The notes under the pieces were generated by a model that ran no database searches, was not told the origin of the DNA, and was given only the letters and a program-made list of their open reading frames with translations. Shown one piece after another: positions 5,279-24,005 of a stretch of 64,000 bases of DNA. Each line of letters opens with the position of its first letter. Positions within the stretch are counted from its first letter, which is position 1. The DNA comes from Trichodelitschia bisporula (taxonomy: Eukaryota). The translations under genes and the position numbers were made by a program. The stretch lies in contig ML996690.1 in the NCBI GenBank assembly GCA_010356995.1, positions 1,210,217-1,274,216 on the forward strand, read 5' to 3'.

Positions 5279-6870
5279 ATGGGGATTGCGGTCATGAAGG
5301 CTTTTGCCTTGGCCTTCATCGGAACGACGTTCGCTCCGTTTGCCCAGGCGTTCTGGCGAATGCCTTGTCGGAGCTTTCCTGACTACGTCCGCATCGATCC
5401 GATCATCTCGCCTGGCCAGTTTAGTGATCACGCGCACTTGATCGTAGGAGGTAGTAACTTCGGACCGGAGGCGACTTACGAAGACCTTCGTGCCTCGGAA
5501 TGCACGAGCTGTACAATAACGGATGACAAGTCAGCTTACTGGTACGTTTGCGTTGCCGCCTTTGAACTATGTTAATAGGGGGCATAGGGTTCCCGCCATG
5601 ATGTTTCGCCATGCAAACGGTACTTTCGAGCCTGTTCCACGTACGCAGTTCCTCGTGTAAGTATGCATGCGCTTTTACTTATCGCATGCTGATTTCCCAG
5701 GTATTACCAACTCTTCGGCCAAGAGCAGGGTGAATATGTCCACGCGTTTCCCGCTGGATTTCAGATGATATCTGGGGACGCACCACGACGTAACTCTACG
5801 GTGCCTCACGAGCCTGAGAAGAGCTTGTGGGGTCCGGAGGAAACGGCGCCAGGCCGTCTGATCCAGAAAGCCCATGGGTTCATGTGCCTGCACTTCAACG
5901 TCGACCCCCCTGAAGAGTTTCTTGCAAGGCAATTTATGATACCCAAGGATGAGGTCGATACGAACTGCCCAGATGGTGTCCGCGCGGAACTTGTGTTTCC
6001 GGGCTGTTGGAACGGAAAAGACCTGACTGCTGTTGGCGGCAAGTCCCACGTGGCCTACTCCAGTCTCATCATAAATGGCATCTGCCCCGAGGATTTCCCC
6101 GTGCGTATTCCGACGTTGTACTATGAGGCTTGGTACGCTACGGCGGGGTTCAATGGTTACGACGGGGATTACGTCATGTCCAATGGCGACCCAACCGGTA
6201 TACTTCTTTCCCATCTCCCTTTCCGACTTGTCTAACACCATATGTAGGCTATGGTTACCATGGCGATTTTATGTCGGGCTGGGACCCGGACTTCCTTCAG
6301 CAAGCCATCGACTCCCATTGCAGTGATGAAGGTGTGATCGAAAGATGCCCACTCTTCACTCTCCAGTCGCCAGAGGAGGCGGGTACTTGCACGTACAACC
6401 CACCGGCCGCAGCACTCAAGGAGCATTGCAACTTCCCGGGCGACAAGTTGTGCGGCGATAACCCCATCTCGCGCGGCCCTGAACCGGCGATCATGAACAT
6501 CCACGGCGGTCCTTTCGGTGACTCTTCTGGCAACTACCCGTCGGCCTCTGCTCCTGGAAATTACGGCTCTGGAGAGGATTCGTCGGCCTACACTTTTCTG
6601 ACCTACAGTCCCAGCACGGGTTCCTCCGTCTTCGGCGTCTTCTATGACGGTTCTGCCACCGGTACCTCCGTCTCGACGAGTTCCTCCGTCTCCGATGTCG
6701 TGGATTACGGCTTCGCCACGAGTTCCTCGGTCTCAAAGACTTCGTCGCAGGGCGGTCAATGTGCTGAGGTTCCTACCGTCACCGTGGCGCCTACGCAGAT
6801 TGTGCTTGTTCAAGACGGGACGGAGTTCATCATTGAGCCCGTCACCGTTACTCTGACGACGTCCGTCTAG
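5279..6870 (+). CDS. Secreted DUF1996-domain protein with Ser/Thr-rich tail (3 introns)
   Basis: Signal peptide, then FWRMPC..RIDPIISPG..DHAHLIVGGSNF..CTSCTITDDKSAYW, CPDGVRAELVFPGCWNG, CPEDFPVRIPTLYYE and GYGYHGDFMSGWD. Introns near 5542-5587, 5657-5700 and 6198-6248. Confidence 0.9.
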
Positions 6871-16341: not shown

Positions 16342-16704
16342 TGTTGCGGATTTCAGGGATGGATTTGGGGGTGGGGGGTTACATTGTTGTGCTTTGGGTG
16401 GTGAGCGGGTCTTTATGATGGGGTGGGGTGACTTGCGCAAGGGTTGCGGGGCGGGATGGGGTGGGGCTGCCGAGGGTGTACCCGTTGTGGCTGGGGTTAG
16501 CCGGGGGTGACGGCGACACCGTTGTTTACCCGTTGCTCGGCGGTTGATGCTGCCGACGTTAAGGCCGACATCATGATCAGACAAGTCCCACGCATCTCGC
16601 ATCACGGTGAGTAGCGCTTCCTCAGCGACGTCATTCCAGATTCAAAAAAGCCCAAGATCTCTAACAGAACTTATAGACGCCTAAATGACCCGCGGGCCAT
16701 CCCC

Positions 16705-19700
16705 TCAGCGCAACCCAGCCAAGCTAATATCCATAATCACAGCCTCATAAGCCAACGACATACACGTGATATAAATGCCCCGCTCCACACCATTCATCTG
16801 GTTCGAGGGCGGGAGGCGCCCAATTATTTCGCTCGTGTACCTCTGAACGAAGGCCTGTGAGCTAGACTTCATCTGTGTAAAGGCAGAGCGTATCCACATG
16901 TCCCACGACGCGACCAGCTGGATCGGTCTCATAGGAAAGCGATTATTCCACTCGGTCTCGATGAGCTGCAGCTGGTCGCGGACTCTATTGCAAATGTCCA
17001 TGGCCTTGGGTCGGACGCTCGGATGCGTGTAATACGAGTATACCACCAGTACCTCAACGACAGTCAGTACTTGTCGGAATGGTCTAGGGTCGACTTACGT
17101 CTCGCATTGCCGATAGTGCATCCTGCCACTCATGCTTATCGAGATATCCCTTCATGACGTTCTCAGCGGTTGGAGCAACGTTTCCTCGCCACATCTACAC
17201 CCATCAGTATGCTGTCTGAGCAGGAGTAAAAGACATACGCGGCTCTTGAGTTCGTTCAGCCCCTGCCGGAGGAAAACTAGGTTCACGCGATTTGTTGAAC
17301 TCCCCAGAGCGTCATACAGGCGGTCCGAAGGCTGGCGGAGGTACTGTGTGCGACTTCCGGGGGAGGACGGTGCCGGCGGGGTGGTTATAGGTAACCAATT
17401 TTTGGTACCGAGAGCCTGATCCACGAAGCTACAGTCTAGTTTGTTCAATGGCAGTGGGCTTCCCATTGCATCTTTGCCTTGCGAGATATCGTTGAAGAAC
17501 CGCACGATGGTGTTCAGCTCGATGATATGCTCGACTGTGGGCATTAGTCACATTCTGACATGGAACAACGGTGCGTAGACCCACCCCCAAAGCCCTTTCC
17601 GTCCTTCGTTTCCGTTTTCTTGATATTTACGTTTTCACAGTCGAGGATCTGCTCGAAGTCGAAGGCACTTTTGAATAGCTCTGGCTCCCGAATCTTTAAG
17701 TTGGTGTCTGCGGCCTGTGGATATGGGCGGGACTTGATAACCTTTTGTACGCTGCCGCATATGAAGGTAAACGGGCGCGGAGACCCAACAAGCGGACTGG
17801 AGATATCCCTTGGTGAAAGGCTCCTAGACCGTCCATCAGTAAGAGAATAATCACCACTCAGAGTTTCCTACCGAGTATCATTGGCCGCAGACCATAGCCT
17901 GCGTTCGGCCACTCCATCCGGATCGAATGGCTCCCCCGACGGCGGATCATAGGGACAGCCCTCTCTGTCACAAAGGTCCCGATCGCAATCCAGCGGGTAA
18001 TGCTGTTTCCGACGCTCCTCATTATTGCGCGCGTCTCTCTGTCCTTGTTCGATCCATTTAACCAGATTGTTCGTCAGGTACATATTGCAGATGAGCTGGT
18101 TAGCCGCCTGGTTTGCATTGCGCACAGCAACCTGCCAATCGGGAAGCACGGGGCGAATATGCTCGATCTGAAGATTTGGGTACTGGTCCCGGACGATCAT
18201 GTCCCATCTCTCCGCCTGCCGCGCCTGTTGCGCGTTGAATGGTCCCGCGACTCTAAGCTGCATGATGAGTTGTCCCAGCCAACTCACAAGGAATCGAACA
18301 TGGTGATAATTCGGTCTCGGGGGTTGAAGCAAGGAAGAATATGCGTTCGGCTGGAGCAATCCCGCGGAGCCCTCCAGGCTGCGCCGAACCCTTGGGATGG
18401 GCCCAACTCCCGGTAGTCCTCCAAAAAGGTCGTCCGTCGGCATCGAGCCGAAATTCGAACCCGGGCCTTGGAAAGGGTTGCTCACGAAGGGGCTCGGGCA
18501 GATTGGATTCTTCATGAACTCTCTCAAGGACTCCTCGAGCTCTCCTAAGGTCTTGTCCTCGACCAGCACCAAGTTCTTGACGCTCACTTTGCAGCAGTTA
18601 GCCTTTGCGCCTTTGTCGCAAATGGACACGCTCATGCGAATCCGATCTCCCGGACACCCCGGTTTACAGGCGCCCTTCTTTTTCGGATTGGGGCCAATGT
18701 CCCGGAACCATTCGCAGCTCTCCACTCTCGTACCCTCCGCCTTGGTGTCGCAGCACAGGGGAGGCGGGCGGTTTTGAAAGTCATCGAAAACCATATGGCA
18801 ATTATCCGTTTCCTTCAGGAGCGAGTATCCAAACTGGTGATCCTGGGGCGCTTTGCACTTGGGGTCTTTTTCGCAATGAGACACTGACCCGAGTCCACAG
18901 GTGCCGTAAACAGCAACAGCTCTGTTCCCTGAGCAGCAGGCCGACTGGTAAGAGTCTCCTTTACAGTACTCGGCGTTTCTCCCAACTTCGAACATATCTT
19001 TTGGACACCCGGGTTTGCACTTTCCTTAAGGGCTTGTTAGCAAGTGCCTTGCAAGATTGTTTGGAAGAGAAAGACACACCGTTGCGATGTTCATACCTGC
19101 ATAACGTCAGCAGAGTCCAACAGAGAACTTAGGGGGAAGCTCACCATCCACACGTCGGCATCTCCTGACTTTCGGGACAGCAGAAGCTGGCGGGACTTAT
19201 CCCCTCGCAGCCAGTCCCATCAAGCATCCATTCCGGCCCCTTTTTATTGCGCGCGCCTTTGTCTTTGCGCTCCATAAGTCTGAATCCCGAAGGACACCCT
19301 AAGAGGTGAAATGGTTAATGGGACACCGAAAGCTTCCAACTGGAAAAGGGGCTCTCACCTTCTCCGCAGTTCGTCCACCGGCATTGCGGCATATCAACCA
19401 GCTGCCTATACTTGCTCGGATCTTTGTCCTTCAATGCCTCCGTCGACGATCTCCCCGCCGCCCGCCCAACGGCCCTGGAAAACCGACCATCTTCCATATC
19501 GTGCGTGATCGCCCACACCATGAGGCCGCCGAGACACTGGCCGCGCGCAAACTCGGCTTTCATCTCTATCGTCTGCTGATCATCGTACGCAACCCACTGG
19601 TCGTCCCAGGATATAACCTTAACCGCCTCATCGCGGTACAGCTGCGGTTTCAGATTCTTGCTCTTAACCGTGTCCATAATCTCGGATATAGTGAGGATGC

Positions 19701-20977
19701 CGGCTTCACGACTGCACCGACCTGGGTTTCCGGCGGCTTTGAATTTGCACCCGGGCGTTAGGCAGCTGGAAGACGTAGCGGTGAAAGCCCGGCCGTAGAA
19801 GCCGAGGCCGAGGACGACTTGGTCTGGCTTGATGTCGTTTCTCCACAGGAGGTCTAGAGCGGTTTGGATCTCGGTCAGATTCGAATGGGCATTGAGCCAA
19901 GGGCCTGTCCACTTGTTGTCGCGGTCCCAGAGGCCGTGCATGTCGTAGCTCATAAGGTTGAAGAACTCAACGTTTGGCTGGAGCTTCTTGATGTCGAAGT
20001 GCTGCAGGTACCAGTACGAGGCCGGCAAGCTGCGTTTCTTAGCTGCTGTCTCTGTGTACTGGAGGATACTTACGTGATACTCAGGCCGGACCTTCCTGCT
20101 GTTTTCAGGGTATCCATGAGGTTTGATATGAACTTGGTGAAGTTGTCGAAGTCCTCCGGACGCCCTCCGCGGTCGTCGGCTGCCGGATACTCCCAATCGT
20201 AATCAACGCCTGTCCTCGGTTAGTCCGGTCTCGCCAGTACGAATCCGCTCCCCACGCTAACTCACCATCAAAATTGAACGCAGACAGAAACGCAACCAAC
20301 GACTTAAAAAAAGTACGCTGATTAACATAACTCCCCGCAATATCAGAGAATGTCGACCTCGTCGGCCCCGGATCATTAAACGCCCACCCGCCCAACGCCA
20401 GATAAACCTTCAAATCCGGATCAAACTCCTTCAACTGCGCAATCCGCTTATACAAATCCACATCCTCTGTATTCGCCGGGCGCACCTGAAAACTCCCCGG
20501 CTCAATCGTCGCAAACGCAATATTGATATGCGTGTACACGCCGCGCGGAATACTCTCCGGCATGAACTTATCACACGGCCGCCGCGGTCCCCACGTCTCA
20601 TAATAGCCGACCACGCGCGCCATTGACCCACTCGATTTCGCATCGCAGCTCGGGCGCTGGATCTTCACATCGCCGCAGAACTCGGAAGTCGTGCCGCAGA
20701 AGCCGAATTTGGAGCAGCACACATTCAGTGGGCAGGAGTCTTTCTCCGAGTATCCGAGCGGCCAGGTGTCGGCCCTGCATTCGGACTTGACTTCGCAGTT
20801 TGCGACGCAGACTTCTGTGGCGCAGAAGTCGGGCCCGTAGCCGCAGTAGCCGAATTTACTGCAGCAGCCTTTGGGGCAGGGGTTAGATTTGGAGCAGTCC
20901 TGGCTGGCGGCGAGGGTGAAGAAGGTGAAATATACGAGGGACAAGAGGCAGCTGCCCGGGGGTGAGGCGAACCGCAT
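16705..20977 (-). CDS. Subgroup C (killer-toxin-alpha-like) GH18 chitinase: signal peptide, 2 hevein/CBM18 modules, GH18 domain, Cys-rich linker and unknown C-terminal domain (about 9 introns, roughly 1,250 aa)
   Basis: CCSKFGYCG and CPLNVCCSKFGFCG; RVVGYYE; LGGWAFNDPG; catalytic FDG|VDYDWEYP across intron 20210-20265; MSYDMHG. Downstream exons splice in frame through canonical introns to the stop at 16705. Confidence 0.92.
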
Positions 20978-21620: not shown

Positions 21621-22804
21621 ATGATGGGTCACTGGAGCCTCGCTTTGTCCCTCTGGATTGTAGCTGTAGCTGCCAGCTCTGTACGCCGGAGCGTCAACAA
21701 TGGTACCGCACTCTGGAACAGCACCACACTCACCAACAGCACCGTCAACGGCAGCCTCACCGGCGAAGCCCGCTACCGCTTTGCCTACGACAACGCGGCA
21801 CCCAGATTCCAGGCCTTCTTCCCCGAAGATCTCGCGGACTCGCGCCTCTCAACCAACTGCCGGGCCGCCTTGACCATGAACCTCCCCTGCCATGCCCGCG
21901 TCGGTAAATTCGCGATCCTCCAGTACCGCGACACGCTCCCCAGCACCCAGCTAACTACCGCCATCTGCGCCGCGGAATGCAGCAGCGCCCTGGGACAGTG
22001 GTTCCATTCTGTGGAAGACGCTTGCAAGGGCGAGACGTGGGCCGGTGAGCCGCCGACGCTGATTCCTGGGCGCATGTGGCAGGGTTGGAATGAGAGTTGT
22101 ATTTTTGAGCCGAGGACGGGGAAGAATTGCAATGATGTCATTGACGGGTACTCGGACTATGAGAACGTTGAGGCGATGGACAAGGTGAGCTGCTCCATCC
22201 CGGGAAGGCCGGGCTAATGCGGTTGTAGGAACACCTCTGCTCGTACTGCTGGGTGCGCCGGCACGAAGCCATGCGCTCGCCCTACGGGATGTACGACGCG
22301 TACTACGCGCACGTCATGGAGGTGATCAACGCGAAATGCGGACTGTCCAAACCGACCTCCATCCCTTCCCCACTCATCGCCACCCCAGCGCCCAAATCCG
22401 CCTTCTGCGCCACGGCCACGTTTTACACCACCGTAGCGGGCGACTCATGCAGCTCGATTGGCCTGGCGAAGAACGTATCCTCCAGTGAGTTGAAGATGGC
22501 AAATCCGGACATCCTTCGGGAGTGCGAGGGCATTCCCGCAGGGAAGAGACTTTGCTTGCCGTATCCTTGCAAAGTGGTTAGTGTGGGCCCGAGTGATTCG
22601 TGCATGGGGATTGAGCTGAAGAATGATTTTCTCTATGGGACGCTGGTTAAGAATAATCCGTGGCTGGACTGGGGGTGCACCAATTTGCAGAGCGGAGTCA
22701 AGAACATGGGGAATGTCCTTTGCGTCACGCCGGCTGCGGGAACTGTCAATTTGACGGTCCCGGGCTTGGTGCTGCAGCCTGGGTCTGGCGGGCGGGGTGG
22801 TTAG
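21621..22804 (+). CDS. Secreted Cys-rich LysM (CBM50) protein, 2 LysM modules, divergent from the chitinase (1 intron)
   Basis: Signal peptide; Cys-rich N-region (LSTNCRAAL..C..ICAAEC..GWNESC..CSYC); YTTVAGDSCSSIG..ELKMANP..LCLP; DSC..NNPWL..CTNL..LCV. Confidence 0.9.
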
Positions 22805-23135: not shown

Positions 23136-24005
23136 TCACGCCTCAACACAAACATAATACCCCGCCGGCAAATTCCCACAATCAGTATGCACCCCCGGAT
23201 TCAGCCTATAAAACGTCTCCAGCGGAAGATTGTACTGCTGCCCAATCTGCCAACAACTGTTCCCCGGACTCACAAAATAATACCCCTTGCAATCCGCCGC
23301 CGTCCCTGGGAGCTGCGGCTGCGGGCCCTTCGGCGCCGGAACGCTGCTGACGCCGATGCATACCGGCCAGCCGGGCTGGATGCTGCATGCTGAGCCCAGA
23401 TTCCTGTATCGTCAGATTTGATTCTCCGGGCGGAGGGGGGCCGACTCACGGATTCCACTCCTGAAACGTGGTGAGCTGCGTCTGCGCCTGGTCCCGCGCA
23501 ATCAGCCAGCAATTATCCCCGGGCTTGACGGTGTAGAATTTGTTGCCTTGGAACGTCAGTCGCTGAGTCTCAGCTAGAGTGGGGACATACAGCTCGCAAC
23601 GGGCTTCGGCACCTGCTGCTTCGGCACCGGCGTCGCGCGCGGCGGCGTCACACTAGTAGGCTGGGGGGCCGTCGGACTCGGCGGCGCAGACGGCTTGGGT
23701 GACGGCGTTGGCGAGCCCTTCAAAGCCTCGACGCAGTAGGTTTTACCGGCTACGAAGGCGGAGCAGTCGGATTTGACTTCCGGGTTCTTCCCTTGTTAGC
23801 ATTGGGGGTGAGAGATTTAGGGGGGGAGTACCAGAAATGCGAATTGCCCGGTCGTCAGGCCCCAGTTGCTGGTGAAGAAGTCGCAGGTATCGCCGGGCTC
23901 GGAGGGGGCAGTTTTGCAGTAAGTTGGGCGCTGCCGGCGCTCGATGCTGGCGGCACCGGTGGAGACGGAGAGCAGGAGGGCGAGGGAGAGGCTGAGGAGA
24001 TACAT
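23136..24005 (-). CDS. Secreted 3xLysM effector-type protein (3 introns)
   Basis: Signal peptide MYLLSLSLALLLS; GDTCD..F.FL|NPEVKSDC..YCV; CNKFYTVKPGDNC..FQEWNP; CKGYYFVSPGNSC..FYRLNPGVHTDCGNL..YYVCVEA-stop. Confidence 0.9.

Follow-up and report, generated by a model that had tools for sequence, protein, structure and literature searches.

A conserved C-terminal domain with putative processing sites in a killer-toxin-like chitinase of Trichodelitschia bisporula

Mycoparasitic and soil fungi have expanded sets of group C chitinases. To our knowledge, the LysM-less branch of these enzymes has no assigned role, and the long C-terminal half of its members carries no annotated domain. A protein that probably belongs to this branch is encoded in a 64,000-nucleotide stretch of the Trichodelitschia bisporula genome (contig ML996690.1, forward-strand positions 1,210,217 to 1,274,216; called the window below, with positions counted from its first letter), by a minus-strand gene (16705..20977) which, according to its open frame and RNA joints, specifies a secreted group C chitinase precursor of 1273 amino acids (aa). 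What, then, is its C-terminal part? The first-pass annotation of the locus tentatively proposed an HNH-like nuclease toxin, delivered by the chitinase and released at Kex2-type sites. The data collected here point elsewhere: with a probability of roughly 0.55, judged from sequence and by analogy, the C-terminal 334 aa are a conserved, hitherto unnamed domain of LysM-less (C-I-type) killer-toxin-like chitinases, a processed module lying where the beta subunit lies in the zymocin precursor and bearing a polar site of enzyme-like appearance.

The chitinase and its conserved C-terminal domain

The precursor begins with a hydrophobic N-terminus, a putative signal peptide (about residues 1-25), followed by two CBM18 modules (about residues 26-130; 20588..20977 on the minus strand together with the signal peptide; Pfam Chitin_bind_1 in 2 stretches, E 1.9e-15) and by the GH18 catalytic domain (residues 137-470; 19468..20569, minus strand, with two introns inside; Pfam Glyco_hydro_18, E 7e-17 and 2.6e-25 for two exon pieces), whose DxxDxDxE motif, assembled across intron 1, reads FDGVDYDWE. 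A Cys-rich region (498-716; 18567..19386, minus strand), delimited from the gene model and the RNA contigs and including a micro-exon, together with a linker that ends in RVRR 775-778, separates this domain from a middle piece (779-939; 17898..18380, minus strand) of 161 residues, 18.7 kDa and 4 Cys, predicted at low confidence to be helical and ending in ERR 937-939. The C-terminal domain itself (940-1273; 16708..17897, minus strand) has 334 aa, 37.8 kDa, an isoelectric point (pI) of 9.0 and 5 Cys, and consists of a spacer up to PR964, an N-terminal part with Cys970 and Cys1010, a core (1027-1126) and a helical bundle (1127-1273). It has no transmembrane-grade hydrophobic stretch. Its last Cys, Cys1255 (16762..16764, minus strand), lies 18 residues from the C-terminus within the most hydrophobic 19-mer of the protein.

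The GH18 motif, the CBM18 modules and the high mass are those of group C, killer-toxin-like chitinases, and the Pfam matches agree with the carrier that had been proposed for the domain. LysM, whose presence inside the chitinase marks subgroup C-II (VLE-type), was not found by Pfam in the pieces of the window protein scanned (all exons except two short ones, residues 238-282 and 507-563), nor in the sequence P0013. In the available parts of the sources, chitinases of the second type within subgroup C (sgC) have an N-terminal GH18 and lack CBM50 (PMC4169460), and those without LysM are termed C-I (bioRxiv 10.1101/2024.10.25.620242). Because GH18 is N-terminal and LysM/CBM50 is missing from the scanned pieces, the window protein is provisionally assigned, by its architecture, to the C-I-type (second architecture) group C chitinases. 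It has in common with them the signal peptide, CBM18, the N-terminal GH18, the absence of LysM/CBM50, the large size, adjoining LysM-only genes and a long C-terminal part free of annotated domains: the five exon pieces from the C-terminal part matched no Pfam family (E <= 1), and the precomputed Pfam annotation of three relatives (P0020-22) contains GH18 and CBM18 only. In the portions of the literature searched that were available, the C-terminal part of sgC/C-I chitinases is not described as a domain and neither a motif nor processing sites are reported for it; as far as those texts go, the domain appears to be undescribed.

Relatives of the domain were found in several fungi. A HMMER pass with the 98-residue exon that carries the conserved motifs, against 1.84 billion representatives (E <= 0.001), gave 14 matches, 12 of which were true relatives (36-64% identity), mostly ORF (open reading frame) fragments cut at introns but including one full-length protein, a 1085-aa “symbiotic chitinase” of Arthroderma uncinatum. 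The other two matches (P0011 and P0012) were rejected as noise on a proline-rich loop: each matched no more than a short stretch of the query (31-74 and 22-58), and they belonged to proteins unrelated by Pfam. A profile search of longer proteins added three full-length relatives, from Paecilomyces variotii (a GH18 protein), Colletotrichum chlorophyti (with the zymocin-like source name “Killer toxin subunits alpha/beta 4”) and Alternaria alternata. All four full-length relatives, from four genera that presumably span three fungal classes, are GH18 chitinases that end in the domain, and their whole tails are collinear with that of the window protein.

Identities between the five full-length proteins (the window protein and these four, with the close Colletotrichum/Alternaria pair left out) were 58-69% for GH18, 34-51% for the Cys-rich region, 17-32% for the middle piece, 34-48% for the domain core (1027-1126) and 17-35% for the domain flanks; the window protein was 58-63% identical to the four relatives in GH18 and 34-37% in the Cys-rich region. 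By these values the core, which bears the motifs, is better conserved than the rest of the C-terminal half.

Two motifs stand out in this core. Motif 1 (E1029-H1030-I-I-E1033-L-N1035-T1036; 17509..17532, minus strand) begins with EHIIE (17532-17518) and motif 2 (P1096..R1099..D1102-A-L-G1105-S1106..N1109....L-V-F-L....N1121..K1124; 17245..17331, minus strand) contains ALGSSTNRVNLVFLRQGLNELK, the ALGSSTN...LNELK stretch, 75 residues further on; both had been seen in the first-pass annotation, which also named the conservation of the E, H, N and N residues in advance as a test. These residues are indeed conserved among the up to 16 sequences of the family: E1029 and H1030 in all 14 that cover them, N1121 in 16/16 and N1109 in 15/16. 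The same is true of E1033 (15/15), of N/Q1035, T1036 and F1040 (16/16), and of P1096, R1099, G1105 and K1124 (16/16) and S1106 (15/16) in motif 2. This degree of conservation goes beyond chance, and the resulting polar cluster (E-H-x-x-E-x-N/Q-T, R, G-S, N, N-x-x-K) looks like a catalytic or a ligand/metal-binding site.

The family is probably not limited to the sequences gathered. With the Colletotrichum protein (P0021, residues 905-1230) as query, the ESM Atlas returned two familyless Ascomycota clusters of “hypothetical proteins” at 0.93 (representatives of 344 and 236 aa; 61 and 65 members), suggesting a family much larger than 16 sequences, some of whose members may be shorter gene models or proteins that stand alone. 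The last exon alone gave a best Atlas score of 0.81, at noise level. Word-based protein searches with exon E_c and with residues 200-385 of the big exon, both against longer proteins, gave no matches, and a metagenome scan with alignment A2 gave 263 pattern matches and 0 relatives. The sole genome-contig match (L001, 3001-3066) was rejected as an antisense frame of a bacterial gene for the carbamoyl-phosphate synthase large subunit. Its 22 residues are 59% identical to R-L-x-D-A-L-G-S-S-T..V-F-L, and such likeness can be due to chance. A scan of viral contigs with the chitinase alignment gave a single GH18 (26% identity), encoded among prokaryote-type ORFs on a contig of 42 kb, and was uninformative with respect to killer-plasmid chitinases.

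The gene was built from the minus strand (23500-15500) and its stop-to-stop ORFs, the exons being joined by coordinates with a script. It runs from an ATG at 20977 to a TGA at 16705 through 10 exons (20977-20266, 20209-20074, 20029-19359, 19298-19145, 19096-19080, 19024-17872, 17823-17585, 17534-17239, 17194-17099 and 17052-16705) and 9 introns of 44-60 nucleotides (nt), all with GT..AG ends, and its 1273 codons contain no stop before the terminal one. Two public runs (X1 and X2), not catalogued as RNA, contain spliced contigs over the gene, and their joints confirm 8 of the 9 introns: 20265-20210, 20073-20030, 19358-19299, the pair flanking the micro-exon 19096-19080, 17871-17824, 17584-17535 and 17098-17053. 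The micro-exon (17 nt, encoding ..Y-E-H-R-N..) was itself seen with 14 letters inside one of these joints. The joint over 17871-17824 ties the last four exons to the chitinase body (17872 to 17823); left unspliced, this intron would end the 1153-nt big exon (exon 6) at an in-frame TAG. Read in frame with the big exon, the last four exons give 325 aa with 5 Cys, and the Cys-poor domain first proposed from their splicing is borne out by the RNA joints and by the homologues.

Intron 8 (17195..17238, minus strand; 44 nt, GTATGT..GTGTAG) was kept in the single RNA contig spanning it (X2), though both flanking introns were spliced. It is taken as real and conserved in position, because the 4 full-length homologues are continuous across its junction (..K-x-R, then L/I/M-W..) and 9 of 10 ORF-type fragments from other assemblies stop there with a GTN (Val) codon. 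The contig most likely represents a retained-intron isoform, or could reflect merely incomplete splicing. Retention would stop the protein 28 codons past K1124-S-R, with loss of the helical bundle and of Cys1255.

The 3' half of the gene is also overlapped by a spliced antisense transcript on the plus strand (window positions 16676-19025). An X1 contig over this interval, which keeps the minus-strand introns, has an antisense intron of 70 nt (17571..17640, plus strand; GTGCGT..CACAG), and another contig has a second one of 48 nt (18550-18597, plus strand; GT..AG).

Dibasic sites and the comparison with zymocin

Only 5 KR or RR pairs occur among the 1273 aa of the window protein. Site 1, RVRR 775-778 (18381..18392, minus strand), is of the Kex2/furin type, and a cut there would precede S779. 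Its position, which follows the final Cys-Pro in the Cys-rich region, is dibasic in all five full-length proteins (RVRR, RRKR, AKR, ARR and QRR). It is one of the two Kex2-type sites proposed earlier, RVRR followed by S (18392-18378); the other, SLSPR followed by D (17822-17805), is present in the window but does not correspond to a conserved site. Two further positions are dibasic in 4 of the 5 proteins: site 2, ERR 937-939 in the window protein (RR codons 17903-17898), and site 3, a KR right before the first Cys of the domain, which is replaced in the window protein by P-R964-P. Since these dibasic pairs persist inside otherwise poorly conserved linkers, they provide good indirect evidence of, and suggest, Kex2-type cleavage.

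The chitinase would be made as a secreted pro-protein, which a Kex2-type protease of the late secretory pathway would cut at RVRR778, at ERR939 and, in the relatives, at the KR before the domain. Three pieces are predicted: a chitin-binding chitinase of 84 kDa, a middle piece of 19 kDa and a basic C-terminal piece of 35-38 kDa, the last with a helical bundle as its tail and the invariant polar cluster as its putative active or ligand/metal-binding site. This C-terminal piece would take the place of the beta subunit of the zymocin alpha/beta precursor, and most likely would act jointly with the chitinase at the wall or membrane of a different fungal cell.

Zymocin had already been invoked for this locus, as a toxin in which a related chitinase delivers a nuclease. 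The related carrier stands, and the comparison overlooked how the toxin is assembled. In the available text of the preprint by Heneghan, Salzberg and Wolfe (bioRxiv 10.1101/2024.10.25.620242), the alpha and beta subunits of zymocin derive by proteolysis from one secreted chitinase precursor, and the gamma ribonuclease is the product of a separate gene, joined by a disulfide to a Cys near the chitinase C-terminus. According to the same text, the C-II chitinases of filamentous fungi, which bear LysM, are clustered with gamma-toxin, immunity and LysM-only genes; this account of zymocin and the C-II clusters also draws on passages of PMC13556262, PMC13442484, PMC13348850 and PMC11848437. Work since 2024 ties the LysM-bearing branch to zymocin-like ribonuclease toxins. 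Because the zymocin precursor ends in a Kex-released, non-nuclease beta and gamma is encoded separately, a C-terminal piece that Kex2 would release from a chitinase compares more closely with the beta subunit than with the nuclease.

The likeness to the alpha/beta precursor (Kluyveromyces lactis, pGKL1) extends to several features. Both are secreted, chitin-binding GH18 proteins with a Cys near the C-terminus (Cys1255 in the window protein), and LysM-only genes stand alongside the window gene as in the clusters of zymocin relatives. The zymocin precursor is split by proteolysis into a chitinase and a non-chitinase C-terminal subunit, and the window protein has, at the level of motifs, dibasic sites at the matching junction, where cleavage is predicted. 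The two differ in that the window protein has no LysM in the scanned pieces, that no gamma-toxin or immunity gene was recognised near it, and that its family has three conserved dibasic positions, whereas the zymocin precursor has a single alpha/beta junction.

Several observations weigh against a processed, beta-like module. The comparison with beta covers position, size, sites and a Cys. This Cys has a counterpart among the final 35 residues in three of the five full-length proteins, the window protein included, and none in the other two. Cleavage is predicted from motifs, and the P-R-P found at site 3 in the window protein is a poor Kex2 context. The invariant E/H/E/R/S/N/N/K residues fit an enzyme better than a passive carrier, and confidence in the structural models described below is low over the motif region. 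As far as the available preprint text goes, the published toxin clusters involve C-II and not C-I (bioRxiv 10.1101/2024.10.25.620242). A crude scan for signal-peptide ORFs (2-45 kb of the window) found no gamma-toxin-like small secreted ORF, though gamma-toxins are too divergent and intron-rich to be excluded in this way, and no immunity-like gene was recognised near the chitinase gene.

Alternative readings of the domain

An unlikely alternative, which nevertheless survives better than the others, is an enzyme or binding module acting outside the target cell and neither a nuclease nor a beta-like carrier: a wall or membrane hydrolase, or a metal- or carbohydrate-binding helper of the chitinase. 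The invariant polar cluster in the best-conserved stretch would suit such a module, as would secretion and the disulfide-bearing nature of the protein (5 Cys in the domain), and the domain sits on a chitinase in the window protein and in 4/4 full-length relatives. Assorted extra modules such as Hce2 and CBM24 are known on sgC chitinases, at least in the parts of PMC4169460 and bioRxiv 10.1101/2024.10.25.620242 that were available, and the third Atlas cluster, at 0.89, is a bacterial “Chitin-binding protein”. That score, however, lies below 0.9, no family, fold or solved relative of the domain was found in the searches made, and the conserved dibasic sites favour release over a tethered helper.

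The nuclease first proposed for the locus is, in our estimation, more doubtful still. In its strongest form, the domain would be a divergent His-Me finger nuclease (HNH/DUF1524-GmrSD_C-like) with an insert of about 60 residues between strand 1 (T-E-H-I-I-E) and strand 2 (F-V-L-L) with the helix that follows (L-N-x-x-K), released by Kex2 from the chitinase that carries it and forming a single-chain counterpart of zymocin. The short motifs do recall GmrSD_C/DUF1524 (PF07510) and HNH (PF01844): a non-helical E-H-I-h is followed by N-h-x-L-L-x3-h-N-x-x-K and a helix, E-H and N1121/K1124 are conserved in 14/14 and 16/16 sequences, and the domain is basic (pI 9), with no gamma-toxin gene found nearby. 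Nine residues ahead of N1121 the family has N, D, H or G, and N/D/H-x8-N equals the usual N-to-N/H spacing of HNH. This position, in front of the hydrophobic strand, is nevertheless variable, and H1030 lies more than 80 residues from the N (the two motifs being 80-90 residues apart), a distance that is typically 10-30 residues in His-Me fingers.

Profile searches did not support the family. With hmmscan of alignment A1 (14 rows, E <= 10), no HNH, DUF1524 or other His-Me family was detected, and none was detected in the window exon pieces or in P0013, P0015 and P0008. PADLOC and NCBIfam gave no His-Me family either, their matches being to single members at E 0.0065 or weaker and none of them common to the members, and the best E of the PDB sequence profile search was 0.13. 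Two lower rows of the ESM Atlas search, clusters at 0.79 and 0.76, contain GmrSD_C (PF07510) in 16% and 78% of their members, and clusters under 0.9 are leads only by the Atlas's own calibration.

Because this weak lead names the very family proposed at the outset, GmrSD_C was tested directly with hhalign, using the 16-sequence fungal family alignment against 12 GmrSD_C and 16 HNH domains from bacterial genomes; these are small alignments (effective number of sequences, Neff, about 3-5), which limit the power of the comparison. The best match to GmrSD_C had a probability of 0.3%, E 0.2 and a score of 15.5 over 21 columns, and paired N-F-V-L-L-x3-L-N-x-x-K with G-N-L-x-L-L-x4-N; the best match to HNH (E 0.27, 7 columns) paired t-E-H-I-I with V-h-H-I. 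Both local matches fall on motif residues (motif 2 for GmrSD_C, motif 1 for HNH), as a nuclease would have it. The scores, however, are those of the controls: the reversed GmrSD_C template gave 15.4, and 4 of 40 column-shuffled templates scored higher (16.9-18.4), whereas the true pair GmrSD_C and HNH, aligned from the same small alignments, gave E 7.8e-4 over 36 columns including both motifs. When the insert of about 60 residues was excised with 12 boundary choices, the two motifs never came together in one alignment and the probability did not exceed 3.2%; the low-mact and global modes of hhalign did not join them either. The His-Me likeness thus does exist, as two short motifs in the right order, but is statistically indistinguishable from chance in the tests run.

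The predicted structures were too uncertain to settle the fold. The first AlphaFold2 model (a 258-aa Paecilomyces fragment, 20-row alignment) was all-helical, with a mean predicted local distance difference test score (pLDDT) of 62.6; the second (Paecilomyces P0020, first dibasic site to C-terminus, 470 aa, 21 rows) had a mean pLDDT of 54.5. In the second model the last 140 residues (331-470 of the construct) form a helical bundle (pLDDT 74-90 per 10-residue block), E-H is followed by a confidently predicted helix (pLDDT about 80), and T-E-H-I-I-E and D-F-Y-L-L are non-helical, the latter being followed by a helix with I-N-G-M-K. This order of elements is compatible with strand, insert, strand and helix (beta-beta-alpha), as the nuclease proposal would require. 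The beta-hairpin itself, however, is absent at the motifs from both models, where pLDDT is below 50 (motif 2) and 33-53 (E-H blocks). Foldseek against PDB gave nothing at E <= 0.001 for either model, and the fold searches found no nuclease, their matches being confined to the helical bundle. Neither the HNH/His-Me fold nor the nuclease activity first proposed for the domain is therefore upheld by the family matches and the hhalign controls.

The locus had also been considered a possible fungal polymorphic toxin, whose C-terminal module should be swapped between related carriers. The trait in common with such toxins, bacterial or fungal, is a large secreted carrier with a C-terminal module, here with predicted processing. 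The same C-terminal domain is nevertheless present on 5/5 full-length proteins, a small sample without swapping, and no adjacent immunity candidate was recognised; in the literature searched (titles and the beginnings of abstracts), nothing linked fungal chitinases with HNH or polymorphic toxins.

A bolder conjecture would make the LysM-less (C-I-type) chitinases single-chain toxins, with the cargo in cis instead of a separate gamma ribonuclease. The Kex2-released domain would then be a very divergent His-Me-like or a new metal-dependent enzyme, built around E1029/H1030/E1033, R1099, S1106, N1109, N1121 and K1124, which enters and kills competing fungi after the chitinase has opened their wall. 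We consider this improbable, to about the same degree as the nuclease itself. Finally, a reading in which the last four exons form a gene of their own downstream, or in which the tail is a non-functional extension with motifs arisen by chance, is practically excluded: the TAG reached when intron 17871-17824 is kept and the truncated protein of the contig with intron 8 retained speak for it, but an RNA contig joins 17872 to 17823, the first downstream ORF has no ATG until its last residues, the tail is collinear with those of four annotated full-length chitinases, and residues are invariant across what we take to be three fungal classes.

For the processed, beta-like module that is preferred here, the delimited domain and its short list of invariant polar residues offer a handle for mutation, and the three conserved dibasic positions can be mapped in the secretome. 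The question is thereby framed as one between two options, a beta-like carrier and an effector fused in cis. If the domain were an enzyme acting inside target cells, fungal toxins delivered by chitinases would have a second design, one that needs a single gene; if it were a beta-type subunit, the invariant site would offer a first hint at the function of such subunits.

Neighbouring genes

Immediately upstream, the chitinase gene is flanked by two genes for LysM proteins. The first, divergently oriented (21621..22804, plus strand), putatively encodes a secreted LysM protein (Pfam LysM, E 5.4e-5) with a signal-peptide-like start. The N-terminal part of this protein, about 200 aa and containing Cys, has no Pfam family. 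The second (23136..24005, minus strand) encodes a putative secreted LysM-only protein with at least two LysM modules (E 1.5e-6 and 1.8e-6 for two ORF pieces).

Beyond the LysM genes, an acidic ORF of 219 aa (25085-24426, minus strand), lacking both a signal peptide and a Pfam family, may be an immunity-type candidate by its place in the chitinase/LysM cluster. The signal-peptide ORF scan mentioned above (2-45 kb) returned only the LysM gene, one ORF at 15984-15760 (minus strand) and, at 5279, a secreted ORF that is unrelated. On the downstream side of the chitinase gene, the end of the cluster is marked by a gene for CoaE (dephospho-CoA kinase; 16400-15760, minus strand, E 1.2e-24).

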